Part shown: positions 10,696-53,775 of the stretch, one piece after another
How the letters are laid out: the number at the start of each line of letters is the position of its first letter
Numbering within the stretch: the first letter of the stretch is position 1
Source of the DNA: a bacterium
Lineage (GTDB): Bacteria; UBA10199; 2-02-FULL-44-16; JAAZCA01
DNA length: 64,000 bases
Direction of reading: 5' to 3'
NCBI GenBank assembly: GCA_963674695.2
Contig: CAXXGI010000001.1
Span: forward strand, 576,001 to 640,000
Position numbers and translations under genes: made by a program
The notes under the pieces: model-generated
The model's input: only the letters and a program-made list of their open reading frames with translations
What the model was told of the DNA's origin: nothing
The model's database searches: none

Positions 10696-10820
10696 GTCGT
10701 CCTCCTTTTTTCGGATGATGGAAAGCGAGTATAGCGATATGGGGCCACATTCCAATGTCTTTATGGAATAAAAAAGCGAGCCCCGTTCGGGCCCGCTTGT
10801 TTCTTCGGCACATCGTCGCG

Positions 10821-11339
10821 CTATTGCGCCGGCTTTCCCATCGCCAACCCGACACAGACGCCGCCCACGCACTTGAACTGCGCAAACTCCTGAAAGCGGC
10901 AGGGCGTCTCGGGACACATGGGTCCGAACCAATCATCCGGTCCGCACTTGTCGTTGGCCGCCTTGCGCTTCTGCGCCTCGGCCTTGTTGACCACATACGG
11001 CGTGCACGACGCCTGGCAGGTGCAATCGTTTTCCGTCTTCGGCGCGTTTTCAAACTTGGTGAAGGTGCAATCCTCTTCGGTCTTGCAGGGATAGGTGGAG
11101 GAGATCTCGTCGAACTGCTCGTGTCCCTCGACCTTTTCGCCGATGACCTGGCCCTCTTCATAAGTCGTTCCGGCAGAAGCGGCAGCCGGTGCAGGGGCCG
11201 CAGCCCCTGCCCCATCCGCCGGCGGCATCGCCTCTTTCTGATCCTCCACCGGGATAGCCTCTTGTCGGTTACATCCAACAACCGCACCGACAACGATGAG
11301 CATCCCCAACACGGCCATCATGATTCCAAAACGTCGCAT
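10821..11339 (-). CDS. Cys-rich lipoprotein, paralogue 1
   Basis: Lipobox VVGC; Ala/Pro linker; C-terminal domain with 10 Cys shared with 11363..11926. Confidence 0.75.
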
Positions 11340-11362: not shown

Positions 11363-11926
11363 TCACATCGACCGCGATTTTCCCATGGCCAATCCCACGC
11401 ACATCCCCTTCATACACTTGAATCCCTCGAAGGCCTGGAACCGGCAGGGAATGGCCGGGCACATGGGGCCATACCAATCATCCGGATCGCAGTATTGATT
11501 GTTGGATTTCTCACGCTTGTCCCGCTCGGAGATGCTCACGACAAACGGCGTGCACGCCGCAGCACACATGCAGCTGTTCTCACCCTTCGGCACATTCTCG
11601 TATTTGCTGAAGGAACAATCGCTGGCCGATTTGCACGGATACTCGGAGAAAATCGCGTTGAACTGCACCTGCCCTTCGGTCTTTTCATAGCGCACGTCGC
11701 CCTGCTTATAGTCGACCGTCGGCGCCGGCTTTGGCAACGCGGCCATCGGGGCAGACCCAGATGCGGCCGGCGCACCTGGTGCCGCTTCCGCTGGAGCCGC
11801 GGCTGCATCCGTCGCGGGAAGCGGCTCATCTATCGACGACGGTCCATGACAGCCGATCACACAACCGACGAGAGCGATGCCCAGGATGAACATTGCCGTT
11901 TGACCCCTTGCCAACGCACGCTTCAT
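11363..11926 (-). CDS. Cys-rich lipoprotein, paralogue 2
   Basis: Lipobox VIGC; same YPCK..DC.F.K.EN.PK.EN.C.C...[30 protein letters not shown] pattern. Confidence 0.75.
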   Translation of the reverse strand: MKRALARGQTAMFILGIALVGCVIGCHGPSSIDEPLPATDAAAAPAEAAPGAPAASGSAPMAALPKPAPTVDYKQGDVRYEKTEGQVQFNAIFSEYPCKSASDCSFSKYENVPKGENSCMCAAACTPFVVSISERDKREKSNNQYCDPDDWYGPMCPAIPCRFQAFEGFKCMKGMCVGLAMGKSRSM

Positions 11927-12109
11927 ACGTCCTCCTTAGTGTTCCCGTAAAATAGACCAGGACCGGATCGACTTCAACTTCAATCGGGCCCTTTTTCAAG
12001 ACCAACCCATTATCCGACACCGCCAAGACGTCCCCGCCTTGACAGAAGGTCACTCAATCCCTATTTTAAGAGAAATTGAACGTCACCAACACCCACTGCG
12101 AGGATCCCC

Positions 12110-12640
12110 ATGAAGCTCTCTACCGCCATCATCATCATCGTCGCCCTGATCGTCGCGGCCATCTGTATCGTCAAGTACAACACCCTCTCCGATTACGACG
12201 AAGCGGCCGAGAAGTCATTTGCCCCGCTGACCAGTTTTCTGCAGGAACGCTATCAGGCCGTGCCGCGACTGGTCAGCTCGATCGTCCTCTATACCGGCAA
12301 GGAGGATCGCGAAGTCAAGCAGCTCAATGAAGCCTACAAAGCCTATACCCAGGCGACGACAATGCAGCAGCGCGTGGAGACGAGCGCCACACTGGAAGCC
12401 ACACTCATGAACACGAAGCAACAGATCATGGATCGCTATCCGGGAATTTCCAGCAACTATCAGTTCAACTCGATCGCCAAGACGATCGCACAGGCCGGGA
12501 ATGACCTGATGGGACCGCTGGGCGCCTACAACACAGCGGCGAGCACCTACAACTCCTATGTGCGTCGCTTCCCCAACAACATCGTCGGCGCGATCTTCAT
12601 GTTTCCATCGCGCTATCCGTACTTCAAGCGTGAAAGCTAA
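12110..12640 (+). CDS. lemA: LemA family protein
   Basis: N-terminal TM, YN, LQERYQAVPRLV, YPGISSNYQF, YNTAASTYNSYVRRFPNNIV. Divergent member. Confidence 0.8.
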   Translation: MKLSTAIIIIVALIVAAICIVKYNTLSDYDEAAEKSFAPLTSFLQERYQAVPRLVSSIVLYTGKEDREVKQLNEAYKAYTQATTMQQRVETSATLEATLMNTKQQIMDRYPGISSNYQFNSIAKTIAQAGNDLMGPLGAYNTAASTYNSYVRRFPNNIVGAIFMFPSRYPYFKRES

Positions 12641-12659
12641 TGTGCACGTTGGCATAAAT

Positions 12660-12691
12660 AAAAAACCCCCGGTCGAACCGGGGGTTTTTTT
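12660..12691. terminator. Rho-independent terminator (bidirectional-type) after lemA
   Basis: AAAAAACCCCCGGT-CGA-ACCGGGGGTTTTTTT. Confidence 0.9.
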
Positions 12692-12732
12692 ATTGAAGCG
12701 TAGAACGTTTCGCCGGAAAAGCCCTTGTCGTC

Positions 12733-12748
12733 CGGCATGTGGACTGCT
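12733..12748 (+). promoter_or_regulatory. Possible sigma54 -24/-12 promoter
   Basis: CGGCATGTGGACTGCT keeps the GG-N10-GC spacing, 28 nt before the GDH-like ATG; imperfect match to TGGCAC-N5-TTGCW. Confidence 0.45.
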
Positions 12749-12776
12749 ATTCGAAGGATGTTCCTGAGGGCACCCT

Positions 12777-14066
12777 ATGCAGCCCAACGAGATGCACAGC
12801 ACGATGTCCCGTTCGGCCGATTCGCTGGCCAACGTCATGGCTGAATTCGATGCAGCGGCAAAGCATCTGCACCTCGATCCTGACAGCATCGCCTCGATTC
12901 GCGAACCGCGATGTGCCATGCGATTGGCACTTCCGGTGCGCACCGACGACGGCCACATTCGGGTCCTGCGAGCCTACCACACCATCCACTCCCGCATGCG
13001 CGGCCCCTCGATCGGTGGCGTCCAGTTTCGACCGGACGTCGACCCACACACGGTCGAAGCGCTCGCCTTCTGGTCTTCTCACCGCTGCGCCCTGGTGGGC
13101 ATCCCTTTCGGCGGGAGCTCCGGCGCCATCGATTGCGATCCACGCCAATTCAGCCTCGGTGAACTCGAACGCATCACCCGGCGCTACATCGCTGAACTCG
13201 CGCACGTCATCGGCCCCAATCGCAACATTTTGACAGCGGACATCGGCACCAACCAGCAGATCATGTGCTGGGCGATGGACACCTATTCGATGAACCACAA
13301 CGACTACACCCCGGCCGTCGTAACGGGAAAACCAGCCGATCTCGGAGGATCAGCGTTGACGGTCGCACCGGCCGCAATCGGGGCTGAGATCTGCATCCGC
13401 AAGGCCTGCGCCCACATCGGCCTTGCGCTGGAAGGCGCGCGCGTCGCCATTCAGGGGTTCGGCAAGGTCGGCATGACGATCGCAAAGCTCCTCGCCGCCC
13501 GTGGGGCGAAGATCATCGCCATCGCCGATATCAGCGGCGCCTACATCAACGAAGACGGCATCGAGATCGACGAGATCATCTGGCACCAGCAGTCCTACGG
13601 CATCCTCGACGGACTCGAGGGCGAGGCGGATGTCGAACGCCTCCCCGATCCGAAGGATATCTTTGCCCTTCCCGTCGACATCCTGGTTCCGGCCGCCGTC
13701 GAGCTGCAGATCACCGAGCTGAATGCGGCAGCGGTGCAAGCCCGCATCATCGCTGAAATCGCCCATGACCCGGTCTCGCCCGAAGCCGATCGGATGCTCA
13801 CCGAGCGCGGCGTTTTCATCATTCCGGACGTCCTGTGCAACGCCGGCGGCGTTATCGGATCATACCTGGAATGGGTCCAGAATCGGATGGGATATGTCTG
13901 GGACGCCGAGCGCGTCGAACAGGCCCTCGCACAGCTACTCGAACAGGCGTTCGATACCGCGGTGAAAACAGCTCAGCGCGAACAGATCCCCCTGCGCCTG
14001 GCCGCTGCTGTCCTGGCGGTCAAACGTATCGTCCAGGCATCGACGATGAGGGGGGCCTATGCTTGA
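12777..14066 (+). CDS. Glu/Leu/Phe/Val dehydrogenase homologue with degenerate active site (probable pseudoenzyme)
   Basis: GDH fold motifs retained (VVTGKP..LGGS, IQGFGKVG, IPDVLCNAGGV..SYLEWVQN). Changed motifs: GPxKGG to GPSIGG, MTxK to SSHR, GGxKGG to GGSSGA. Confidence 0.88.
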   Translation: MQPNEMHSTMSRSADSLANVMAEFDAAAKHLHLDPDSIASIREPRCAMRLALPVRTDDGHIRVLRAYHTIHSRMRGPSIGGVQFRPDVDPHTVEALAFWSSHRCALVGIPFGGSSGAIDCDPRQFSLGELERITRRYIAELAHVIGPNRNILTADIGTNQQIMCWAMDTYSMNHNDYTPAVVTGKPADLGGSALTVAPAAIGAEICIRKACAHIGLALEGARVAIQGFGKVGMTIAKLLAARGAKIIAIADISGAYINEDGIEIDEIIWHQQSYGILDGLEGEADVERLPDPKDIFALPVDILVPAAVELQITELNAAAVQARIIAEIAHDPVSPEADRMLTERGVFIIPDVLCNAGGVIGSYLEWVQNRMGYVWDAERVEQALAQLLEQAFDTAVKTAQREQIPLRLAAAVLAVKRIVQASTMRGAYA

Positions 14067-15825
14067 GACGCCGCCGATTCAGATTGGGGAAGGTTCGCTT
14101 GGCGGAAAGGGCAAGGGCATCGTGCGCGTGATCGAAGCGATCGCCGCGCTCAAAGCCGACGGCACGGATGCAGCACTTGCCGAACGCATCGCCGTTCCGC
14201 GCACGGCATTTCTGGCCACCGACATCTATCGCGACTTCATCGCCCATAATGAATTCGAAGCACTCATCGCACAGACCAAGACCGCCGAAGCAATCGACAC
14301 GGAAACAATCGCCCCGCGTTTTCTGGGCGGCCAGTTTCCTCAACCAATCGTAGCAGCGTTGCAGAAACTGTTGAAGCAATTTGAAAAACCCCTGGCTGTG
14401 CGCTCGTCCTCACTACTCGAAGACCAAAAAGGTGCCTCGTTCGCTGGAAAATACGAATCCGTCTTCGTCGCCAACACGGGATCACCTCAAGAACGCCTCG
14501 AAGCGCTGCTCGCGGCCATCACGACCGTCTATGCCTCGACCTTCAATCCGAATGCCTTGGCGTATCGCCGCAAGCACGGGTTTCTCGACGACCGCGAGGA
14601 GATGGCGATCGTCATCCAGGAAGTGGTGGGACAATCCTTCGGACGTTATTTCTTCCCCGCCCTCTCCGGCGTCGGCTTCTCCCAGAACGGCTACTGTTGG
14701 AACAAGAACATCAAGAAACACGACGGATTGGTGCGACTCGTCTTCGGCCTGGGAACCCGCGCGGTGGGCCGCGGATACGTGCGGCTCTTCTCACCGCCGG
14801 CTCCGGAGATGCGACCGGAGGGGAATGAAGTCAACAACATCCAGAAGTGCAGCCAGAAGAAGGTGGATGTCATTGATCTCGAGAAGGGTTGTTTTGCCTC
14901 GGTCCACTTTCGCAAGCTCATCACCGATGGATTCACCTGCCCCCCCGGCACACAATTATTCGTCTCCCTCCGAGACGGCGGCTATCTCTACCGCCCTGTC
15001 TCCAATCTCTGGGATTCCTCGCACGTTCCGGTACTCACGCTCGATGGCGTGCTCTCCGGCATGTGGATGGGGATCAATGTGCCGAAGACCCTGGGCTGGA
15101 TCCTGCGCGAGTTGGAGACGCGCATGGGATGTGCCATCGACATGGAATTCGCCATCGACGTCGACAGCCAAAAACAACGCGCCAACATCTTCATCGTCCA
15201 GGCGCGCCCACTCTCTGAACGAGAAAACCAAAAGCCGGAACCGATCCCGAAGCTGCCCGCGAATGACATCCTCTTCACGGTGCACCGCAACCTGCCCACA
15301 GCAACCGTTCCCGACATCGACCTGCTCGTCGCGGTCAACGAAACGCGCTATCACGAATGGCCCGCCGACGACCGGCAGAGCGTTGCCCGCGTCATCGGCG
15401 CCCTCAACGACCTGCTGGCGAAGAAACGTTTTGCGCTGATCGGACCCGGCCGCTGGGGCTCCTGGAATCCCCAGCTCGGTGTCCCCGTGAGCTACGCCGA
15501 GATCGCGGGCACCGTACTGCTCATCGAAGTGGCCCGAAGAAAAGCGACCTACGTCCCGGAGGTTTCGTTCGGTTCGCACTTCTTCCAGGATCTGATCGAA
15601 GACAACATCGCCTACCTCCCGCTCTATCCGGATGAACCGAACGAAACATTCAACGAGAAGATCCTTCAGCTTCCTTCCTGTTTCCCCACGCTCCTCCCCG
15701 ACCCGTATTTTCGAAAGTTCGATGAGCTGATCACCGTTATCGATGTCGCAGCCCAGGCCGGTGGCCGCAAGGCCCATGCGATTCTGAACGGCGAAACGGA
15801 GGAGGCAATCGTCTTCCTCCGTTAG
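14059..15825 (+). CDS. PEP/pyruvate-binding (PPDK_N, ATP-grasp) domain protein
   Basis: GGKGKG, LAVRSSSLLED...SFAGKYES, MAIVIQEVVG, FGLGTRAV, DMEFA, IVQARP, GPGRWGS, SFGSHFFQDL. No GGxTSHAA swivel domain and no PEP TIM barrel. Confidence 0.88.
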   Translation: MLETPPIQIGEGSLGGKGKGIVRVIEAIAALKADGTDAALAERIAVPRTAFLATDIYRDFIAHNEFEALIAQTKTAEAIDTETIAPRFLGGQFPQPIVAALQKLLKQFEKPLAVRSSSLLEDQKGASFAGKYESVFVANTGSPQERLEALLAAITTVYASTFNPNALAYRRKHGFLDDREEMAIVIQEVVGQSFGRYFFPALSGVGFSQNGYCWNKNIKKHDGLVRLVFGLGTRAVGRGYVRLFSPPAPEMRPEGNEVNNIQKCSQKKVDVIDLEKGCFASVHFRKLITDGFTCPPGTQLFVSLRDGGYLYRPVSNLWDSSHVPVLTLDGVLSGMWMGINVPKTLGWILRELETRMGCAIDMEFAIDVDSQKQRANIFIVQARPLSERENQKPEPIPKLPANDILFTVHRNLPTATVPDIDLLVAVNETRYHEWPADDRQSVARVIGALNDLLAKKRFALIGPGRWGSWNPQLGVPVSYAEIAGTVLLIEVARRKATYVPEVSFGSHFFQDLIEDNIAYLPLYPDEPNETFNEKILQLPSCFPTLLPDPYFRKFDELITVIDVAAQAGGRKAHAILNGETEEAIVFLR

Positions 15826-15898
15826 CGCCCATCAGGCGAGTGTTGCATTGACCCGCCGCTATCAGCTATCATTGGACTTCGAGCAAAGGGGGGCACCC

Positions 15899-16288
15899 AT
15901 GGGAAACAAGCGCATCCTGGTGGTTGAGGACGAACCGGATCTGGCCGATCTGCTCATCCAATATTTAAAACATGAAGGCTATTCCATCATGGTCGCCCTG
16001 GATGGAAAGGATGGCCTGGAACGCGCCAAGGAAGAGCATCCGGATCTGATCATCACCGACGTGATGATGCCCAAGCTCGATGGCTTTCACCTCTGTCGCC
16101 TGCTCAAGTTCGATGCCAACTTCAAGAATATCCCGATCATCATGCTGACTTCGCGCGGAGAGGGCGAAGCCAAGCAGACGGGCACGAGCGTCGGCGCAGA
16201 TGCCTACCTCACCAAACCATTCGAGAGCGAGGAACTCCTCGCGACGATCCGGAAGCTCCTCGGCGAGGATGAAATCAAGGAAGGATAG
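15899..16288 (+). CDS. Stand-alone response regulator receiver
   Basis: ILVVEDE, IITDVMMPKLDG, IIMLTS, YLTKPF; no output domain. Confidence 0.93.
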   Translation: MGNKRILVVEDEPDLADLLIQYLKHEGYSIMVALDGKDGLERAKEEHPDLIITDVMMPKLDGFHLCRLLKFDANFKNIPIIMLTSRGEGEAKQTGTSVGADAYLTKPFESEELLATIRKLLGEDEIKEG

Positions 16289-16487: not shown

Positions 16488-16517
16488 GAGCGCCGACGCA
16501 TGCGGCGCTCCTTTTTT
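16488..16517 (+). terminator. Rho-independent terminator
   Basis: GAGCGCCG-ACGCATG-CGGCGCTC-CTTTTTT. Confidence 0.7.
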
Positions 16518-17739
16518 ATGACGTGAACGCCTCTGCAGGATTCCGGCCCGCCGCGCGCAAGCGACGAATATCGGCGGTGAGTTTCGGCAAGATATCAAAG
16601 AGATCTCCGACCAAACCGTAATCGGCCAGCCGAAAGATCGGGGCATGCGGATCGCGATTGATGGCGAGCAGCTTTTCCGACGTCTTCATCCCGACGATAT
16701 GCTGAATGGCACCCGAGATGCCGACGGCGACGTAGAGTTTCGGACAGACCGTCTTGCCCGTCTGACCGATCTGATTGGCATAGTCGATCCAGCCTTTGTC
16801 GACCGCTGAACGTGTGGCGCCGACCGCGCCGCCGAGGGCATCGGCCAAGTCCTGAATCAATGCAAAGTTCTCCGGGTTTCCCAACCCCCCGCCGCCGGAG
16901 ACGATGATATCGGCATCGACCAGATTCACCCCGATCCCCTCGCGCACAATCGATTCGACCACCTTCACCCGCGAGACGAGCGATCGCTCCGGAACGGAGA
17001 CCGCGATCACCTCGCCGCTACGGCCGGCCTGTGCTTCTGCCTCGCGCATCACCTTATAGCGCACGGTGGCCATCTGAGGACGATGCCGACGCGTGACGAT
17101 CGTCGCCATGATGTTGCCACCGAAGGCCGGACGCGTCTGCGCCAGATGCCCCGCCGCATCGATGTGCAGCTCGGTGCAATCGGCGGTGAGCCCCGTACGC
17201 AACTCGGCCGCCACGCGAGGGATGAATGCGCGCCCAACGGGAGTCGCGCCGGCCAGGATGATCTCCGGCTTCTGCTGGGCAGCCAACGCCGCAAGCGCCG
17301 TCCCATAAAGGTCGTCTCGAAAATCGGCCACCTTTGGATCGTCGAGCAGATAGACGCGGTCGGCCCCGCGCGCAATGAGTTCATCGGCGAGCGAAGTGAC
17401 GCCATCGCCAAAGAGTACGGCGGCAAGAAACGTATCGCGAGCATCGGCGAGTTTGCGCCCTTCACCCAAGAGTTCAAAGGAGACCCGGTGGAGGCTGCCC
17501 CGACACTGTTCGGCAAAGACCCAAACGCCCTGATACGCCGAAAGATCCGGCGTCTCCATGTGTGGCATTTCGAAACGAATGGCATGATACGGACAGACCG
17601 AGACGCACGCGGTACAGAGCGTGCACACATCCTCATCGATAGCCGCACACCCCTCGACGAGACGAATCGCTTCGACCGGGCACTCATTCAGACAGAGGCC
17701 ACAGCCCGTACACTTGGCTTTGATTATTTCGATGCCCAT
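16516..17739 (-). CDS. etfA: Electron transfer flavoprotein alpha subunit with N-terminal 2x[4Fe-4S] ferredoxin
   Basis: CTGCGLCLNECP and CTLCTACVSVCP; TGLTADCT, TRPAFGGNIMATI, QIGQTGKTVCPKLYVAVGISGAIQH. Confidence 0.95.
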   Translation of the reverse strand: MGIEIIKAKCTGCGLCLNECPVEAIRLVEGCAAIDEDVCTLCTACVSVCPYHAIRFEMPHMETPDLSAYQGVWVFAEQCRGSLHRVSFELLGEGRKLADARDTFLAAVLFGDGVTSLADELIARGADRVYLLDDPKVADFRDDLYGTALAALAAQQKPEIILAGATPVGRAFIPRVAAELRTGLTADCTELHIDAAGHLAQTRPAFGGNIMATIVTRRHRPQMATVRYKVMREAEAQAGRSGEVIAVSVPERSLVSRVKVVESIVREGIGVNLVDADIIVSGGGGLGNPENFALIQDLADALGGAVGATRSAVDKGWIDYANQIGQTGKTVCPKLYVAVGISGAIQHIVGMKTSEKLLAINRDPHAPIFRLADYGLVGDLFDILPKLTADIRRLRAAGRNPAEAFTS

Positions 17740-18521
17740 AGTTCCTTCAACTCTTGCTGCAGACTCTGTGCGATGTGAGCAATATTCGCCTCCGTCGCCA
17801 CGAGCGGCTCACTCCCCTGACGCATCGGTGGCGTAAAGATGCGGTCGACCCAGGTGGGCGAACCCTCGAGACCAAGGCGCTGGAGATCGCAACCAATATC
17901 CACCGCACTCCAAACGGGAATATTCGAACGCTTCGCCCGCACCTTCCCCATAAACGAGGTATAGCGCGGTGTGCTGATCTCTTTGACGACCGAGAGCAGG
18001 CACGGCAGCGGCAGGCGCACGATATCGTGGCCGCATTCCGTCATGCGCTCCACGACGACGTGTCGCGGGCCCACCTCCTGCACGCGACGGACGAAGGCGG
18101 CCTGCGGCAGGAGCAGATGCACCGCGATCCCCGGACCCACTTGCGCGGTATCGCCGTCGGAGGCCTGCTTGCCCGTCAGGATCAGATCGAAGGCACCGTG
18201 ATGGATGATTGCCCGAGCCAATGCATAGCTGGTCGCAAGCGTGTCGCTGCCGGCAAAGGCACGATCAGAGATGAGCACCGCATCGTCCGCCCCCATGGCG
18301 ATCGCCTCTTCGAGCGCCACCCGCGCCTGCGGTGGACCCATGGTGAGGACCGTCACGCGCCCCCCGTGCGCTTCGCGCAGGCGCAGCCCCTCTTCGATGG
18401 CATAGAGATCGAACGGATTGATGATCGAGCGCACCCCATCGCGCACGAGCGTGTTCGTCTGCGGATTGATCTTCACATCCGTCGTATCGGGAACCTGTTT
18501 GATGCAGACAATGATATCCAT
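17724..18521 (-). CDS. etfB: Electron transfer flavoprotein beta subunit
   Basis: MDIIVCIKQVPDT, INPFDLYAIE, FAGSDTLATS, GKQASDGDTAQVGP, GLEGSPTWV. Confidence 0.95.
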   Translation of the reverse strand: MDIIVCIKQVPDTTDVKINPQTNTLVRDGVRSIINPFDLYAIEEGLRLREAHGGRVTVLTMGPPQARVALEEAIAMGADDAVLISDRAFAGSDTLATSYALARAIIHHGAFDLILTGKQASDGDTAQVGPGIAVHLLLPQAAFVRRVQEVGPRHVVVERMTECGHDIVRLPLPCLLSVVKEISTPRYTSFMGKVRAKRSNIPVWSAVDIGCDLQRLGLEGSPTWVDRIFTPPMRQGSEPLVATEANIAHIAQSLQQELKELWASK

Positions 18522-18641
18522 AAAAATTAAAAAGGAAAAATATGAAATGAAAAACACAGACCAAAAATAAAAGATAAAGTCGTAAAATTTTTCATTTTTG
18601 ATTTGTGTATTTCATTTTTCATTTCCTATTTTTCATTTTGA
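18522..18641. repeat. AT-rich imperfect inverted repeat built of heptamer-like units (AAAAATG/CATTTTT)
   Basis: A-rich left arm (..TGAAATGAAAAACACAGACCAAAAATAAAA) is complementary to the T-rich right arm (TTTTCATTTTTGATTTGTGTATTTCATTTTTCA..). Confidence 0.7.
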
Positions 18642-18643
18642 AA

Positions 18644-20290
18644 TCACATTCCCTTGTAATTCGGTCCGCCGCCGCCCTCGGGGGGAACCCAGGTGACGAT
18701 CTTGTACGGATCCTTGATATCGCACGTCTTGCAGTGCACGCAGTTGGACGGGTTCAGGTGGAGGCGTGTGACGCCATCGGCCTCCTCGACCATTTCGAAG
18801 ACGCCCGCGGGACAGAAGAACTGACACGGATTGCCGTACTCCTGCTTGCAACGCCCGTTACAGATGGAGGTGTCATCGACCAGGATGTGACAGGGCTGGT
18901 CCTCCTCGTGTTTCGTACCGGAAGCAAAGACACAGGTCGTGCGATCGAAAGTCACCTTGTCATCCGGAACGAAGGGCGGCTCTTTGTGTGCCTTCACCTG
19001 GCTGAGCTCTTTCGTGCAGTCCGCATCCGAAGGCACCGGAATGCGATCGTGCAATCCCCGACCGCCGGTGAGGATACCCAGACTCGCATTGATCATCCCG
19101 CCGATGAGCCCCCCGTGAAATCCCTGGTGAAAATTGCGCGCAAGCTTGAGTCCCTTCGCCATCCAACTTCCCCGCACGCGTTCATCATAGACCGAGAGTT
19201 TTGCTGCCGAACAGTCATCCACACGCAACGCATCGATCGCCGTCTCGGCAGCCAGCATCCCCGACTTCATCGCCAAATCGATCCCCTTGAGCTTCATGGC
19301 GTTCAAAAACCCGGCGCTCTCGCCGATGATGAGGAATCCATCGCCATAGGTTCGCGGAATGCAGTAGAACCCCCCCTCCGCGATCGTGCGCGCGCCATAG
19401 GAGAGCATGCGGCCGCTCTCGAAAAGCGGTCGAATCGCCGGGTGCGCCTTCCAGCGCTGAAAGAGCTCGTAGGGATAGGTGCGCGGATCCTTCCAATCGA
19501 GCGAGACCACGAGCCCCGCCGCCACATGCCGATCGCGCAGATGATAGATGAAACTCCCGCCAAAGGTCTTCGCGTCCAGCGGATGGCCCATCGTGTTGAC
19601 GATGGTCCCCTCCCGGAAATGCTTCGGGTCCACCTCCCAGAGTTCCTTGATTCCCACCGCATACCCCTGAGGCAGGCAGTGTTCATCGAGCCCCTGTGAT
19701 TCGACGAGGCGCCGCGTCAAGTGTCCGCGCGCGCCCTCGCCCAGCACGACAATGCGCGCGCCGATATCGGTCGGGGGCAGGTAGTTCGACTTCTGCTTAC
19801 CCTCCTTATCGCACCCCTTCCCCTTGATGCGCACACCGATCACGGCCCCGCGTTCATCCTGGATAAGTTCATCGACCGCCTCACCGGAAAAGATCTCGAC
19901 CCCTTCGGCCTCGCAATGGCCGCCCAGCCATCGCACGAACTCCGCCAGCGAGATAATATACTTGCCGTGGTTGGACATCGGCGGCGGAACGAGGGGTGCG
20001 GGGATGTGATGATTGCGCGTCAGATACCAGAGGCGCTCACGGCTCACCTTCGTGCCGAAGGGGATGTCGCGACTGCGCCAATCGGGCATCAGTTCGGCCA
20101 GCGCTCGCGGGTCAAGCGCCGCGCCCGAGAGCGAATGATCACCCAGATTTGGCGCCTTCTCGATGACGGCCACCGTCATGCCGGAGAGCTTCGGATCTGT
20201 CTTGGCCAGACGTTTGAGATGCAGCGCACCGGCGAGCGATGCCGGCCCGCCGCCGACAAAGATGACATCGAAGGAAAGTTCAAAGGACAT
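18644..20290 (-). CDS. ETF:quinone oxidoreductase (FixC+FixX-like, single chain)
   Basis: DVIFVGGGPA, HSLSGA, GIKELWE, GGSFIYH, GESAGFLNAMKLKGIDLAMKSG, HEEDQPCH, CPAGVFE, NCVHCKTCDIKDP. Confidence 0.93.
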   Translation of the reverse strand: MSFELSFDVIFVGGGPASLAGALHLKRLAKTDPKLSGMTVAVIEKAPNLGDHSLSGAALDPRALAELMPDWRSRDIPFGTKVSRERLWYLTRNHHIPAPLVPPPMSNHGKYIISLAEFVRWLGGHCEAEGVEIFSGEAVDELIQDERGAVIGVRIKGKGCDKEGKQKSNYLPPTDIGARIVVLGEGARGHLTRRLVESQGLDEHCLPQGYAVGIKELWEVDPKHFREGTIVNTMGHPLDAKTFGGSFIYHLRDRHVAAGLVVSLDWKDPRTYPYELFQRWKAHPAIRPLFESGRMLSYGARTIAEGGFYCIPRTYGDGFLIIGESAGFLNAMKLKGIDLAMKSGMLAAETAIDALRVDDCSAAKLSVYDERVRGSWMAKGLKLARNFHQGFHGGLIGGMINASLGILTGGRGLHDRIPVPSDADCTKELSQVKAHKEPPFVPDDKVTFDRTTCVFASGTKHEEDQPCHILVDDTSICNGRCKQEYGNPCQFFCPAGVFEMVEEADGVTRLHLNPSNCVHCKTCDIKDPYKIVTWVPPEGGGGPNYKGM

Positions 20291-48279: not shown

Positions 48280-51200
48280 ATGACCAAGACACGCATCGCC
48301 CTCATCCTCACCCTCATCCTGATGATTTTCCTGGCCCTTCCCGAAAGCGCCTTCGCTGCCGATGGCGATGGCGACGGGTGGCAGGATGCCGCGGAAATCC
48401 TCTGCGGCACCGATGAAACCAATGTCGCCGACATGCCGACCGATACCGACGGTGATGGCGTTTGCGACGTCCTGGAAGATTCCGACCTCGACGGCGATGG
48501 GTTCTCCGCCGGCGTCGAAATGCTGTGCGGATCGGATCCGGCCGATGCGGGCGATGTGCCGACCGATACCGATGGCGATGGCGACTGCGACACGATCGAC
48601 GCCGATCGCGACGGCGATGGCTGGTACGATGCGATCGAAGACGGCTGCGGCACCGACCCGGCCGATGCGGGCGATGTGCCGACCGATACCGACGGCGATT
48701 CGATCTGCGACGCGATGGAAGTCTCCGACCGCGATGGCGACGGCGTCGTCGATGCGATCGAAACGCTCTGCGGTTCGAATCCGGCCGATGCCGGTTCGAT
48801 CCCGACCGACACCGATGCCGACGGCGACTGCGATGCCATCGACGCCGACCGCGACGGCGATGCGTGGGCCAATACGATGGAGACCGCTTGCGGCACCGAT
48901 GCGGACAACGCCGCCGACGTGCCGACCGACACTGACGGTGACAACGTCTGCGATGCGATGGAAGACGGCGACACCGACGGCGATGGGGTGGAAAACGCGG
49001 TCGAGACCGTCTGCGGGTCGGACCCCGCCAATGCGGCATCAACCCCGACCGACACCGATGGTGACGGCGACTGCGACGCGATCGACGATGACGACGATGC
49101 CGATGGATGGATCGACGCGCTCGAGACAGCCTGCGGAAACGATCCTGTCGATGCAGGGGACATACCGACCGACACGGATACCGACGGCATCTGCGACCTG
49201 ATGGAGACGGCCGATCTCGACGGCGACACCTATGCCAACGCGCATGAAACGCTGTGTAACTCCAACCCAAGCGATGCGGGGTCAACGCCGCCGGACACGG
49301 ACGGCGACGGCACCTGCGATGCGATCGACCCCGACATCGATGCGGACGGCTGGATCAACGAACTGGAGACGCTCTGCGCGACGGATCCGAGCGACAACGC
49401 CTCGATCCCGGTCGACACCGACGGCGATGGCCTCTGCGATGCGATGGAGACGGCCGACATCGACGGCGACGGTTTTGAAAATGCGATCGAGACGATGTGC
49501 GGATCCGACCCGGCCGATGCGGGTTCGACGCCGGCCGATGCGGATGGCGACGGCACCTGCGATACGCTCGACGCCGACACCGACGGCGATGGCTTCGGCA
49601 ACGACATCGAGACCGTCTGTGATTCCGATCCCAATGATGCGGGCGACACCCCGACCGACACCGATGGCGATGGCACCTGCGATGCCCTCGAAGATGACGA
49701 CCTCGACGGCGACGGTTTTGCCTCGGCCATCGAAGCGCTCTGCGGATCCGACCCCGCCGATGCGGGCGACACCCCTGCGGATGCCGATGGCGACGGCGAC
49801 TGCGATGCCATCGATGCCGACATCGACGGCGACACCTGGGCGAACACGATGGAAACCGCTTGCGGCACCGATCCGAACAACGCCGCCGACGTGCCGACCG
49901 ACACCGATGGCGATCTGATCTGCGATGCGATGGAGCAGGATGACATCGACGGCGACGGCGTGGCCAATGTCATCGAGGATCTCTGCGACTCGGATCCGGC
50001 CGACGCGGGTTCGACGCCGACCGACAGCGATGCCGACGGCACCTGCGACACGCTCGACGCCGACCGCGATGGCGACGGGTGGAGCAATGCTATCGAAGCC
50101 CCCTGCGGCACGAGTGCGGACAACGCCGCGGACATCCCGCTCGACCTGGACGCCGACGGCGTCTGTGACGCGATGGAGGATGCTGATACCGACGGCGACG
50201 GCTCCACCGACGCCGAAGAAAACCTGTGTGGATCAGATGCGAACAACGCGGCCGTTACGCCCATCGATGCCGCACACGACGCGGACGGCGATGGAACGTG
50301 CGACGCCCTCGACGCCGATCGCGATGGCGACGGCTGGGACGACACGATCGAGACCGGCTGCGGCACCGACCCCGCCGATGGAGCGGACGTCCCCGCCGAC
50401 ACCGACGGCGATCTGATCTGCGATGCGATGGAGGTCGCCGACATCGATGGCGACGGATTCTCCAATGCCTTGGAAACCATCTGCGGATCCTCCACGACCG
50501 ACGCGTTGGAAACGCCCACGGACATCACGCGCGACATCGACGGCGACGGCACCTGTAACGAACTCGACGCCGACCGCGATGGCGACGGATGGGACGACAC
50601 GATCGAAGCTCCCTGTGGCACCGACCCGGCCGACGGAGGCGACACGCCTGCCGACACCGACGGCGATTCGATCTGCGACGCGATGGAGATCGCCGACACC
50701 GACGGCGACGGATTCTCCAACACCTTAGAGACGATCTGCGGATCCTCCACGACCGTTGCCGGGCAGACGCCGATCGATGCCACGCGCGACATCGACAGCG
50801 ACGGCACCTGTAATGCCCTGGACAACGATCAGGATGGCGACGGCTGGATCAACGATATCGAAACCCTCTGCGGATTCGACGCGGCCGATGCCGCCTCGAT
50901 TCCGGCCGATGTGGATGGCAACGGCATCTGCGATGCCCTGCAGGATCCGGCTCGTCCGGTGATCACCGCACTCACGATCGACGGCGTTGCGGGCCCCGCC
51001 ACCAAGGATGAAGGCACGGTGGTCACCTTGGGCGTCACCGCCAGCGATCCGCTGAACGACACGCTCACCTATCTCTATACGCGCGTGAGCGGACCGGCCG
51101 TCGTTTTGCCGGGCGGCGATGGAACCAATACCCTCGCCGTCACGCTTCCGAGCGTGGCCGGTGACGAACAGCTTATCATCCGCGTGGCCGTTCAGAATGA

Positions 51201-53775
51201 ACGCGGGCTCATCTCTCTCCCCGAGACGGCGACGATCACCGTGAATGCCATCAACCAGGCGCCCGTCGCGCGCATCGGCGGCAACTTCACCGTCGGCGAA
51301 CAGGAGGATATCTTCCTCTCGGGAGCGGAAAGCTCTGATGCGGACGGCAATGCGCTCACCTACGCCTGGGTGCTCACCGATAACGGCGGCGGCACCTGCA
51401 ACTTGACCGTCGCGAATCAGATGGAGACGCGCGTGACAACGAATATCGTCAACGCCGCGACGAACTGCACGATTCAACTGGTCGTCAACGACGGCATCAC
51501 CAATTCAGTCGCAGCCATCGAAACGCTCACGGTCCTCAACACCGACAATACCGAGCCGGAGGTGACGACCGTGCGCCTGACCGACACCGGTGGCGGGGAC
51601 ACGACCTACAACCTCCCAGCCTCTATCGGCCCCTATGCGATGAACGAAAACGAAACGCTCACGATTGCGGTGACCGCCACCGACGACGATGGCGATCCGC
51701 TGGTCTATCGCTATACGCAGATCGCGGGGGCGAGCCTCAACCTCCCTGCGGAGGATGACGATTCCGTCGATGTGGGCATCCCCGAGATTGCCGGCATCGC
51801 GAATGACACGATCGTCATCCGCATCGACGTCGATGATGATCAGGGCGGCACGAGCACGCCGGTCTTCGCGATCATCACCGCCGCACAGGTGGATCGCGCA
51901 CCGGTGGCGAACGCCGGCCCCGATCACGCGGCCAACGAGGGCGACCTGGTGACGCTCGATGGAACGGAGAGTGCCGACCCGGACACCGACGCCCTCACGC
52001 TCACCTGGGAGCAGATCGACGCCAACCCGGCGCTGCCGGAATTTGTCGCCGGCGGCGGCACACTCGTCGGCATGCGCGTGCAATTCACCGCACCGAGCAC
52101 GCTCACCGCGGATACGACCTACAGCTTCCGCGTGACTGCTGATGACGGCCGCGGACAAACCGCAACCGATGATGTCGACGTCATCGTGCGCAACAGCCAG
52201 AACGCTGTGCCGACGATCGTGCTCGGCGATCAGACCGTCGATGAAGGCGACATCGTCACCGTCACCGCGATAGTGACCGAACCCGACACGATCGGAGGTG
52301 GGAACGAACAGCAGGTCCACACCTCCACCTGGATGCAGACCGGCGGTCCAGACGTCGATATCACCGTCAACGGGGTCGATCAGGACGAGTTCAGCTTCGA
52401 TGCCCCGACCGTGAATGCACAGACCGACTTCACTTTCCGCCTGATGGTCTCCGATGGTCGTGGCGGAGTCGCGATGGGCACTGCGGTGATCACGGTGCGC
52501 AACAACGTCAACGAAGCGCCGGTGGCAAAGGCGGGCGTGGATCGCACGGTCTCCGAGCAGACCACCGTCGTCCTCGACGGCACGCGTTCGTATGATGACA
52601 ACGATCCGAATAAAGAGAATCTCACCTTCGCGTGGACGCAGACGGCCGGAACCGCGGTGACGATCGATGCGGCCAACGCTCAGGTCGCCACCTTCGTCTC
52701 GCCGAAGGTCGTCGAGGCGGGCCAGACGCTCACCTTCGAACTCACCGTCAGCGACAACGACGCCACCGATCCGAAGACAGCGACCGATACGGTGACGATC
52801 ACGATCACCAACGACGTGAATGAAATGCCCACCGTCGACGCCGGCGACGACGTCATCACCGGCGAGGGTCAGGCCGTCACGCTCACCGCGGTCGGCACCG
52901 ATGAGAACGAGGCCGATGACTCAACGCTCACCTATTCCTGGGTGCAGATATCCGGAACGACGGTGACGCTCGAGGATGCCGATACGGCCGCGATGAGTTT
53001 CACCACGCCCACGGGAGAGCGCAACACGACGCTCGTCTTCGCGGTCACCGTCACCGATCCGGAGGGCGACTCGGCAACCGACACGATCACCGTCGATGTG
53101 CGCGATCTGTTTCTGTCGTGCGCACAGACCGAGATCATCGCCGCGAACGGCGAGGAGGTGACCATCGAGTGCACCGCCCAGACGGGTGAGGATGCAGCGG
53201 CTATCTTCTATGAGATCGTCGCGATCAATGGCCAGAGCACAGGCGGAGTGGCGCGTGCAGCCGAAGAGGAGTACATCACACCGGTGGAATTCTCCGTCGC
53301 CACCGATCCGACGGCGCCGATGTTCGACCTCACCGCGCCGGCAACAATCGATTTCTCCGCAGCGGCCGCGCCATCATCACAAACCTACAACGTGGCCCTT
53401 CCCTCGCAGGACTTCGAGATCACGCTCGCGATCGGAGAGAATCAGCAGACGACCTACGAGGCGCGGCAGACCTGGATCCGCACCGCCGTGCTGCCGACGA
53501 TCGATTCGCTCGACGGCATACGCTACACGATCCGCGCAACGGCTGTGAGCCAATACGGCAGCGAGGATGCCGCCGACGTGGTCATCACCACCGAGCCCCC
53601 CTTCTCTATCGGCGGAGGCGGTGGCCGTGGCATGTTTGGTCTGGGTATGATGGGATGCCAGCTCAACGCCCGCGCGAACGAACACCCCAGCCGCAATTCG
53701 TTCATCGCGTTCCTGTTCCTCCTCATGAGCACGTTCGGCGCCATCCTCATCTTCCGCCGCGCACGGTCGCAGTGA
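48280..53775 (+). CDS. Large surface protein: signal peptide, 21 Ca-binding DxDxDG/Cys repeats, PKD/cadherin-like Ig domains, MYXO-CTERM-like anchor
   Basis: AFA signal cleavage site; repeats DxDGDGxxxxxExxCGxDPxDAxxxPxDTDGDGxCD; NxAPVAxAGxD..LDG..S.D domains; GGGG..GC, TM helix, RRARSQ at the C-terminus. Confidence 0.9.
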   Translation: MTKTRIALILTLILMIFLALPESAFAADGDGDGWQDAAEILCGTDETNVADMPTDTDGDGVCDVLEDSDLDGDGFSAGVEMLCGSDPADAGDVPTDTDGDGDCDTIDADRDGDGWYDAIEDGCGTDPADAGDVPTDTDGDSICDAMEVSDRDGDGVVDAIETLCGSNPADAGSIPTDTDADGDCDAIDADRDGDAWANTMETACGTDADNAADVPTDTDGDNVCDAMEDGDTDGDGVENAVETVCGSDPANAASTPTDTDGDGDCDAIDDDDDADGWIDALETACGNDPVDAGDIPTDTDTDGICDLMETADLDGDTYANAHETLCNSNPSDAGSTPPDTDGDGTCDAIDPDIDADGWINELETLCATDPSDNASIPVDTDGDGLCDAMETADIDGDGFENAIETMCGSDPADAGSTPADADGDGTCDTLDADTDGDGFGNDIETVCDSDPNDAGDTPTDTDGDGTCDALEDDDLDGDGFASAIEALCGSDPADAGDTPADADGDGDCDAIDADIDGDTWANTMETACGTDPNNAADVPTDTDGDLICDAMEQDDIDGDGVANVIEDLCDSDPADAGSTPTDSDADGTCDTLDADRDGDGWSNAIEAPCGTSADNAADIPLDLDADGVCDAMEDADTDGDGSTDAEENLCGSDANNAAVTPIDAAHDADGDGTCDALDADRDGDGWDDTIETGCGTDPADGADVPADTDGDLICDAMEVADIDGDGFSNALETICGSSTTDALETPTDITRDIDGDGTCNELDADRDGDGWDDTIEAPCGTDPADGGDTPADTDGDSICDAMEIADTDGDGFSNTLETICGSSTTVAGQTPIDATRDIDSDGTCNALDNDQDGDGWINDIETLCGFDAADAASIPADVDGNGICDALQDPARPVITALTIDGVAGPATKDEGTVVTLGVTASDPLNDTLTYLYTRVSGPAVVLPGGDGTNTLAVTLPSVAGDEQLIIRVAVQNERGLISLPETATITVNAINQAPVARIGGNFTVGEQEDIFLSGAESSDADGNALTYAWVLTDNGGGTCNLTVANQMETRVTTNIVNAATNCTIQLVVNDGITNSVAAIETLTVLNTDNTEPEVTTVRLTDTGGGDTTYNLPASIGPYAMNENETLTIAVTATDDDGDPLVYRYTQIAGASLNLPAEDDDSVDVGIPEIAGIANDTIVIRIDVDDDQGGTSTPVFAIITAAQVDRAPVANAGPDHAANEGDLVTLDGTESADPDTDALTLTWEQIDANPALPEFVAGGGTLVGMRVQFTAPSTLTADTTYSFRVTADDGRGQTATDDVDVIVRNSQNAVPTIVLGDQTVDEGDIVTVTAIVTEPDTIGGGNEQQVHTSTWMQTGGPDVDITVNGVDQDEFSFDAPTVNAQTDFTFRLMVSDGRGGVAMGTAVITVRNNVNEAPVAKAGVDRTVSEQTTVVLDGTRSYDDNDPNKENLTFAWTQTAGTAVTIDAANAQVATFVSPKVVEAGQTLTFELTVSDNDATDPKTATDTVTITITNDVNEMPTVDAGDDVITGEGQAVTLTAVGTDENEADDSTLTYSWVQISGTTVTLEDADTAAMSFTTPTGERNTTLVFAVTVTDPEGDSATDTITVDVRDLFLSCAQTEIIAANGEEVTIECTAQTGEDAAAIFYEIVAINGQSTGGVARAAEEEYITPVEFSVATDPTAPMFDLTAPATIDFSAAAAPSSQTYNVALPSQDFEITLAIGENQQTTYEARQTWIRTAVLPTIDSLDGIRYTIRATAVSQYGSEDAADVVITTEPPFSIGGGGGRGMFGLGMMGCQLNARANEHPSRNSFIAFLFLLMSTFGAILIFRRARSQ

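Follow-up and report, generated by a model that had tools for sequence, protein, structure and literature searches.

The window analysed here, a 64,000-nt stretch of contig CAXXGI010000001.1 (assembly GCA_963674695.2, positions 576,001 to 640,000 of the forward strand) from a bacterium of the UBA10199 lineage, encodes a conserved glutamate dehydrogenase (GDH) paralogue that is dead by sequence, has arisen independently of known systems and is translationally coupled to an ATP-grasp protein, putatively of the phospho-histidine type. The GDH paralogue, which lacks the active-site lysines (pseudo-GDH; 12777-14066, + strand, 429 aa), is followed by a dikinase-like PPDK_N protein (14059-15825, +, 588 aa) and by a receiver whose maximal open reading frame (ORF) runs from a TTG at 15848 to 16288 (+), with the likely true start at ATG 15899 (129 aa). 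The ancestral and usual context of the pair consists of a catalytic GDH, the pseudo-GDH and a dikinase-like protein of ~590 aa, the last two joined by an 8-nt overlap, and the usual third partner is the catalytic GDH. The window is an exception, without the upstream catalytic GDH and with a receiver gene downstream.

Pseudo-GDH belongs to the Glu/Leu/Phe/Val dehydrogenase superfamily, with both Pfam domains above their gathering scores (PF00208 ELFV_dehydrog, 212.8 bits, cut-off 23.4; PF02812 ELFV_dehydrog_N, 142.7 bits, cut-off 25.3), and lies under every NCBIfam GDH equivalog cut-off (368.6 bits vs. 620 for NF041398, 367.3 vs. 750 for NF040817). The roles of the glutamate-binding and catalytic lysines of GDH are known from the Clostridium symbiosum enzyme. 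Pseudo-GDH aligns to the Thermus GDH chain 3aoe_A, which is GdhB according to PMC9570180, with 347.7 bits and to chain 3aoe_E with 272.7 bits. In the alignment to 3aoe_A the three active-site lysine positions hold Ser, Ile and Arg: GPAKGG has become GPSIGG, MTIK has become SSHR, GGGKGG has become GGSSGA and GRRDATGRG has become LTVAPAAIG. The GANGP of the dinucleotide site is also altered, to IAHDP, and GFGKVG, NAGGV and SYLEW are retained. The alignment bears out an earlier reading made from the sequence alone (the sequence-only reading), which had reported the loss of three lysines and of RxxATGxG alongside the retained motifs. Judged by its sequence, the 429-aa protein is a pseudoenzyme in which the glutamate-binding and catalytic lysines have been replaced.

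These losses are not due to chance, because they are common to 39 of the 120 best homologues of pseudo-GDH (P0001-P0038 and the fragment P0096; 53-68% identity to pseudo-GDH) and the replacement residues are themselves conserved, giving the fixed motifs GP[SA][IMV]GG, FWSTH[RQ]CA, PFGGSxGA and AExA[HY]DPVS. The remaining 81 homologues (≤51% identity) have all three lysines and every catalytic motif intact. Across the 38 full-length lysine-less members there are 72 invariant columns and a mean column identity of 70%; 18 positions are fixed within the clade and differ from catalytic GDHs, and the position of the catalytic lysine varies (S/Y/C/W). A quick maximum likelihood tree, supported by SH-aLRT values only, recovers the lysine-less proteins as a monophyletic clade (SH-aLRT 100) on a long stem (1.22), with the catalytic GDHs of its own lineage as nearest relatives (≤51% identity). 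Since pseudo-GDH branches among these GDHs and is nearer the GdhB chain, its origin is independent of Thermus GdhA.

Mean pairwise identity over the 28 pairs from eight genomes is 61.4% for pseudo-GDH, 68.6% for the neighbouring catalytic GDH and 59.7% for the PPDK_N protein. The Nei-Gojobori ratio of non-synonymous to synonymous substitution (dN/dS) is 0.024 for pseudo-GDH and 0.032 for its catalytic neighbour, as calculated for the single closest pair of loci (L015/L017), in which the dS of the GDH genes approaches saturation and that of the PPDK_N gene has reached it. Pseudo-GDH is conserved and selectively maintained, and the dN/dS value, the invariant columns and the monophyly of the clade agree with the earlier view that this dead enzyme is not decaying.

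Members of the pseudo-GDH family are rare: when one genome per species was scanned (~185,000 species), 7 loci emerged, and a metagenome scan gave another 8, making 15 related loci. Of 60 relatives of the source genome, 4 carry pseudo-GDH, and these share their contigs with 4 of the 7 genome loci. The genome loci lie in metagenome-assembled genomes (MAGs) labelled Gemmatimonadales, Polarisedimenticolaceae, Myxococcales, Bdellovibrionota, Pseudobdellovibrionaceae and Pseudomonadota, and the cassette is present in MAGs labelled Acidobacteriota-type and Gemmatimonadales. A catalytic-type GDH (66-76% identity to that of locus L011, ~47% to pseudo-GDH) is directly upstream of pseudo-GDH in 15/15 loci, and a PPDK_N orthologue (53-64% identity) is directly downstream in all 11 that continue past pseudo-GDH, the other four ending at or just after it. 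The same 8-nt ATGNNTRA start/stop overlap joins the two genes in 12/12 loci, including the window (14059-14066, +; ATGCTTGA), where the PPDK_N start codon falls within the last codons and stop of pseudo-GDH. The ORFs confirm both this overlap and the intact 429-aa frame, as first read. Conserved synteny, translational coupling and purifying selection together show that pseudo-GDH and the dikinase-like protein work together. No match to the receiver was found in the 15 related loci, including the 11 that cover the region downstream of the PPDK_N gene.

It had also been remarked that no catalytic gdh lies beside pseudo-GDH. This is true of the window, where LemA is the upstream neighbour, but it is a peculiarity of the source genome, as the adjoining catalytic partner that characterizes a Thermus GdhA-type subunit is present in all 15 related loci. 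Neither the window nor the rest of contig C1 has a second ELFV gene; two further ones are encoded on contig C2. One of these (C2:476938-478188), 62-71% identical to the cassette partners, is the most similar catalytic GDH of the source genome and has unrelated neighbours of its own; the other is a ‘type-2’ GDH. Genes flanking the cassette vary between loci, with the exception of L012 (genome G008, same family), which has LemA and a D-Ala-D-Ala-ligase-like gene in common with the window and carries two LemA genes (10722-11252 and 12074-12619) downstream of a complete cassette. The shared genes in L012 and the differing flanks elsewhere argue for vertical inheritance with local rearrangement; within the family, loss of the catalytic GDH gene seems to have gone along with a rearrangement of the locus.

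In the dikinase-like protein, PPDK_N (PF01326) matches residues 13-397 only (167.6 bits, cut-off 27). The ATP-grasp PPDK_N domain occupies residues ~1-394 and is followed by a conserved domain at 395-588 (15241-15822, +); a predicted model of the full protein (pLDDT 89.4, pTM 0.87) contains these two domains only. Foldseek matches for the N-terminal part include rifampin phosphotransferase (5hv3, E 2.2e-17), HpeI (E 2e-12), phosphoenolpyruvate (PEP) synthase (2ols, E 1.3e-10) and, more weakly, PPDK (best E 1.3e-07). Across 102 homologues, the residues that never vary include G15, G16, K17, R115, S116-S118, D361, E363, Q381 and R383; we take K17, R115, D361, E363, Q381 and R383 to be of the kind that binds ATP/Mg in PPDK. 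NCBIfam dikinase models match only residues ~40-235, with scores far under their cut-offs. The sequence-only reading had noted that a PEP domain is missing, and Pfam indeed finds no PF00391 PEP-utilizers, PEP-utilizers_C or rifampin-binding domain in the 588-aa protein; by Pfam and the model alike, the chain ends at 588 after the second domain, with no third, acceptor-binding domain.

The C-terminal domain, which modelled on its own reaches a pLDDT of 93.2, contains the invariant motifs GPGRWG (462-467) and S-x-G-x-H-F-F-Q-D (GSHFFQD here). The histidine of GSHFF that had been singled out from the sequence is His507 (codon 15577-15579); it is invariant in 103/103 aligned family members, including the distant receiver-fused paralogue described below, and the predicted model places it at the N-terminus of helix 507-514. 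In an exhaustive VIA-align search, swivel-type domains rank top: the pyruvate kinase C-terminal domain (2e28, Z 6.4), the PPDK phosphoryl-carrier domain (2fm4, Z 6.2), maize PPDK residues 385-511 (1vbg, Z 6.0), rifampin phosphotransferase residues 756-866 (5hv1, Z 5.7), Enzyme I (2wqd, Z 5.5) and Enzyme I N-terminal entries (5t12 and 5woy, Z 4.8 and 4.6), all of them lower than the Z of ~8 from which such values are meaningful. Because these rows agree with what should follow PPDK_N, our best guess is that residues 395-588 form a divergent phospho-histidine swivel domain, and the initial statement that the protein has no swivel domain is probably wrong, though the Z scores are only 5.5-6.4.

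The family of this C-terminal domain comprises 1,407 clusters at 50% identity (E ≤ 1e-3), with generic annotation only (‘PEP/pyruvate-binding domain protein’; in the ESM Atlas, ‘PPDK_N domain-containing protein’ clusters only). The domain directly follows PPDK_N in all 20 long members scanned, none of which is a GDH-PPDK_N gene fusion, and 9 of the 20 end in a Pol-beta-type nucleotidyltransferase domain. These nine (P0244, P0249, P0254, P0264, P0269, P0282, P0291, P0295 and P0311; ~1,040-1,650 aa) also have an unannotated N-terminal extension of 200-350 aa, and P0241-P0244 have two tandem modules of PPDK_N and the His domain.

Other groups of the PPDK_N family also lie next to GDH genes. Within the phylum of the window (93 genomes), a second group (43-49% identity to the window protein) follows a type-2 GDH gene of the same strand in 10/11 loci: nine are within ~200 nt of it, the gene of L047 is ~1.2 kb away, and L051 ends too early. 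These type-2 GDHs retain all catalytic motifs. The junction is a 4-6 nt spacer in 4/8 cases, and in the other four (L044, L048, L049 and L050) the 150-200 nt spacer contains a terminator-like, GC-rich hairpin and T-runs, which may reflect either attenuation or separate transcription of the two genes. Forms of ~790 aa occur in a second, small phylum (17 genomes around that of L013), where they are downstream of a type-2 GDH in 3/3 genomes that have them. The co-occurrence of lysine-less GDHs with PPDK_N genes, proposed earlier as a check, is borne out by adjacency in 11/11 loci and overlap in 12/12, but it is not exclusive, since PPDK_N genes also pair with intact GDHs. As these other groups occur with intact GDHs and without a pseudo-GDH, the dikinase-like protein relates to GDH generally and not to a dead sensor specifically.

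A third group (980-1,030 aa, 30-35% identity to the window protein) is represented ~11 kb upstream of the window start by a 1029-aa paralogue (G000:C1:565067-566617; L006 76-3165), which is 31% identical over 542 aa and has Response_reg N-terminal to the same module of PPDK_N and the His domain. Its neighbours encode a DnaJ-PilZ protein, a tandem-receiver protein, a PilZ protein and a CHASE2 nucleotide cyclase, so that the dikinase-like module seems to form the centre of a cluster of signalling genes.

As previously described, a single-domain receiver follows the PPDK_N gene in the window (Response_reg PF00072, 104.7 bits, E 3.8e-30). Its translation has the residues of a canonical receiver, namely the acidic pocket (VVEDEPD), the acceptor Asp (LIITD), the Thr (MLTS) and the Lys (TKPF). 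The best relative in 12 family genomes is 54-56% identical and has no conserved context, so that there is no clear orthologue; receiver genes with 44-49% identity lie 1.5-2 kb from the 1029-aa paralogue type in G000, G001, G008 and G012. Among the 6 + 19 ORFs scanned in the interval 126-28233 none encodes a HisKA/HATPase_c histidine kinase, no kinase search having been made in the remainder of the genome, and no HPt domain was seen in the ORFs scanned by Pfam around the locus.

The three genes of the window look like one unit because terminator-like hairpins bound them on both sides. An intrinsic-terminator-like hairpin and T-run (12666-12691, +; CCCCCGG-TCGAA-CCGGGGG followed by TTTTTTT) separates the LemA gene (12110-12640) from the pseudo-GDH operon; it was read by eye and is unlisted in the terminator consensus scan. 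A second hairpin (16488-16510, +; an 8-bp stem with 7 GC pairs, then CTTTTTTATG) is positioned between the receiver gene and a convergent electron transfer flavoprotein (ETF) gene. The sigma54-like box that had been placed before the operon was not recovered: with ≤2 mismatches to TGGCAC-N5-TTGC there is no match in the 12640-12776 spacer, matches across the whole window are at chance level (66 found vs. 57 expected), and a TGGCAT at 12650 sits upstream of the first hairpin. The only promoter-like site in a sigma-70 scan lies upstream of LemA, and the 12692-12776 spacer has none. The sequencing runs listed were three DNA entries of a single study, with no RNA entry among them.

We hold it somewhat probable that pseudo-GDH serves as a GDH subunit without catalytic activity, that the 588-aa protein is an ATP-driven regulator of the GDH complex phosphorylated on His507, and that the receiver is a lineage-specific input. 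Pseudo-GDH would assemble with a catalytic GDH in the manner of Thermus GdhA/GdhB, from an independent origin, and the dikinase-like protein would use ATP to phosphorylate its own His507. The phosphorylated protein could then act on the GDH complex, providing covalent or energy-sensing control of the flux between glutamate and 2-oxoglutarate. In the source genome the receiver would most likely feed a two-component signal into the dikinase-like protein, a role consistent with the 1029-aa paralogue, in which receiver domains are fused N-terminally. Every mechanistic step here is inferred, from the assembly of a hetero-oligomer through autophosphorylation to the choice of acceptor.

Several observations weigh against this proposal. 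Hetero-oligomer formation in the source genome is an assumption because the adjacent catalytic partner is absent there, and in the quick tree the C2 GDH at 476938-478188 falls in a subclade neighbouring the cassette partners. With GANGP altered, binding of NAD(P)H by pseudo-GDH is not assured. Foldseek gave no match between the C-terminal domain and the PDB at E ≤ 0.001, and the VIA-align rows stay below the meaningful range. Hairpins intervene at 4/8 type-2 GDH/PPDK_N junctions, so co-transcription is not universal, and a ~790-aa member in L084 (a Polarisedimenticolaceae-labelled genome) has no GDH within its locus. Most loci come from MAGs or metagenome contigs, and with near-duplicates among them (L011/L020 and L014/L021) there are fewer than 15 independent lineages. 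A complex prediction run without controls speaks neither for nor against the proposal: the PPDK_N protein and pseudo-GDH residues 21-429 (both given as alignments) scored 0.22 and 0.09 against a mark of 0.32.

A phosphorelay, in which the dikinase-like protein is a non-canonical histidine kinase passing phosphate from ATP via His507 to the receiver Asp, with pseudo-GDH as the metabolite-sensing input and the CheY-like receiver as output, is to our mind rather unlikely. A receiver with all phospho-acceptor residues does follow the pair in the same terminator-bounded unit, and His507 is invariant in a domain resembling phospho-carrier domains. The paralogue in the same genome fuses a receiver to the same module, receiver genes lie 1.5-2 kb from that paralogue in four genomes, and the lack of a histidine kinase among the 19 neighbouring ORFs scanned leaves the receiver without an obvious local donor. 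However, orphan receivers are commonly served by distant kinases, and N-terminal receiver fusions usually mark the receiver as the input to a C-terminal output domain. The receiver also lacks a clear orthologue in the 12 family genomes and is absent from 15/15 related pseudo-GDH loci, among them the 11 that reach past the PPDK_N gene. It therefore cannot be a conserved acceptor, and phosphotransfer to it, suggested in the sequence-only reading, does not stand as the core function of the module; a phosphorelay is possible at the window locus.

We give still less credence to a multi-component small-molecule dikinase or ATP-coupled GDH, in which the ATP-grasp and phospho-histidine parts would be contributed by the 588-aa protein, much as by HpeI together with part of HpeH, and the substrate site by the GDH fold. 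A 2-oxo acid, amino acid or dinucleotide would bind in the remodelled pseudo-GDH pocket and then be phosphorylated; such chemistry could activate 2-oxoglutarate so that it is aminated when ammonium is low. The first two dikinase modules are present without a substrate-binding domain, the start/stop overlap with pseudo-GDH is strict (12/12), and the family is also associated with catalytically intact GDHs. Because the replaced pocket residues are themselves conserved (18 clade-specific fixed positions), a new ligand site is suggested rather than mere loss. Yet some of the replacements are hydrophobic or aromatic and differ between clade members (S/Y/C/W where the catalytic lysine would be), the fusions to nucleotidyltransferase (9/20 long forms) or receiver domains look more regulatory than metabolic, and we know of no metabolite or pathway that needs such a phosphorylated product. 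Dikinases with modules split over separate polypeptides do exist, as PMC12167813 describes for the two-component HpeHI. That the GDH homologue is a decaying, functionless copy accidentally adjacent to the PPDK_N gene is hardly credible and was rejected: its catalytic residues are gone and the usual catalytic partner gene is missing at the window locus, but the intact 429-aa frame, the identity levels and 72 invariant columns of a clade spread over several phylum labels, a dN/dS of about 0.02 and the conserved synteny and 8-nt overlap all contradict it.

Additional features were observed elsewhere in the window. Convergent to the receiver gene, the - strand at 16516-20290 encodes ETF alpha with an N-terminal 2x[4Fe-4S] ferredoxin domain, ETF beta and an ETF-quinone oxidoreductase. 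Adjacent paralogous ORFs at 10821-11339 and 11363-11926 (- strand; 172 and 187 aa) begin with signal-peptide-like sequences and have a Cys-rich C-terminal half in common, without a Pfam match. Between 28001 and 30000 the GC content dips to 0.518 (about 0.59-0.62 elsewhere) with positive GC skew, and GC3-based ORF picking called no gene between 28233 and 29694. A single ORF of 1,831 aa occupies 48280-53772 (+ strand).

GDH is a point where the metabolism of carbon meets that of nitrogen, and what is known of how bacteria control it concerns mainly transcription, with a few special cases, namely GdhA and the APRT homologue of Thermus and GarA in actinobacteria. The pairing described here points to an undescribed layer of post-translational or ATP-coupled GDH control. 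It recurs next to GDH genes in several bacterial phyla, the dikinase-like family lies next to intact GDHs in at least two small uncultured phyla, and the finding offers a first functional handle on ~1,400 sequence clusters annotated only as ‘PEP/pyruvate-binding domain protein’. In the open-access literature searched, no paper combined PPDK_N with glutamate dehydrogenase; among top-ranked open-access papers, ‘pyruvate-binding domain’ with glutamate dehydrogenase and operon gave nothing relevant, and nothing on receiver-PPDK_N response regulators used the term PPDK_N. A bolder and more speculative proposal, which we advance with little confidence, is that the ~590-aa proteins are an undescribed class of GDH-dedicated phospho-histidine enzymes, built of an ATP-grasp and a divergent swivel domain but lacking a substrate domain, for which the GDH hexamer is the acceptor-binding partner, in the cassette through a dead subunit with a rebuilt pocket. 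Such enzymes might either phosphorylate GDH, switching it in the manner of AceK where carbon and nitrogen routes branch, or activate 2-oxoglutarate for ATP-costed amination at low ammonium, and in receiver-linked members, that of the window locus included, the His~P module might also serve CheY-like receivers as a non-canonical histidine kinase.

The locus can be compared with three kinds of known systems. With two-component phosphorelays it shares a canonical receiver in the same unit and a putative His-bearing phospho-carrier domain next door; unlike them, it has no HisKA/HATPase_c or HPt in the ORFs scanned, and the receiver is not kept with the module (0/15 related loci). With the PEP-utilizing dikinases (PPDK, PEP synthase, rifampin phosphotransferase and HpeHI) the 588-aa protein shares the ATP-grasp fold (Foldseek E 2e-17 to 1e-10); the domain that follows has swivel-type top matches (Z 5.5-6.4, under the meaningful range) and an invariant His at a helix N-terminus. 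It differs from them in stopping after the second domain, with no PF00391 match, and presumably also in its His motif, which is G-[ST]-H-F-F-Q-D in this family and of the T-S-H-A-A type in the PEP-utilizing dikinases.

The closest parallel is the hetero-hexameric GdhA/GdhB enzyme of Thermus thermophilus (PDB 3AOE), where gdhA and gdhB are adjacent. There, as at the 15/15 relatives of the window locus, an inactive GDH paralogue and a catalytic GDH are encoded by neighbouring genes, and a third, non-GDH protein belongs to each system. Pseudo-GDH is nevertheless not a GdhA orthologue, being nearer the GdhB chain 3aoe_A than 3aoe_E (347.7 vs. 272.7 bits), and in the source genome the catalytic GDH gene is not adjacent. 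PMC9570180 and bioRxiv 10.1101/2025.10.31.685773 describe GdhA of Thermus thermophilus as an inactive regulatory subunit, GdhB as the catalytic one and the third component as an inactive APRT homologue that senses AMP; GdhA is therefore a sound precedent for a non-catalytic regulatory subunit, as the sequence-only reading had noted. In place of the APRT homologue, the system described here has an ATP-grasp protein, putatively of the phospho-histidine type.

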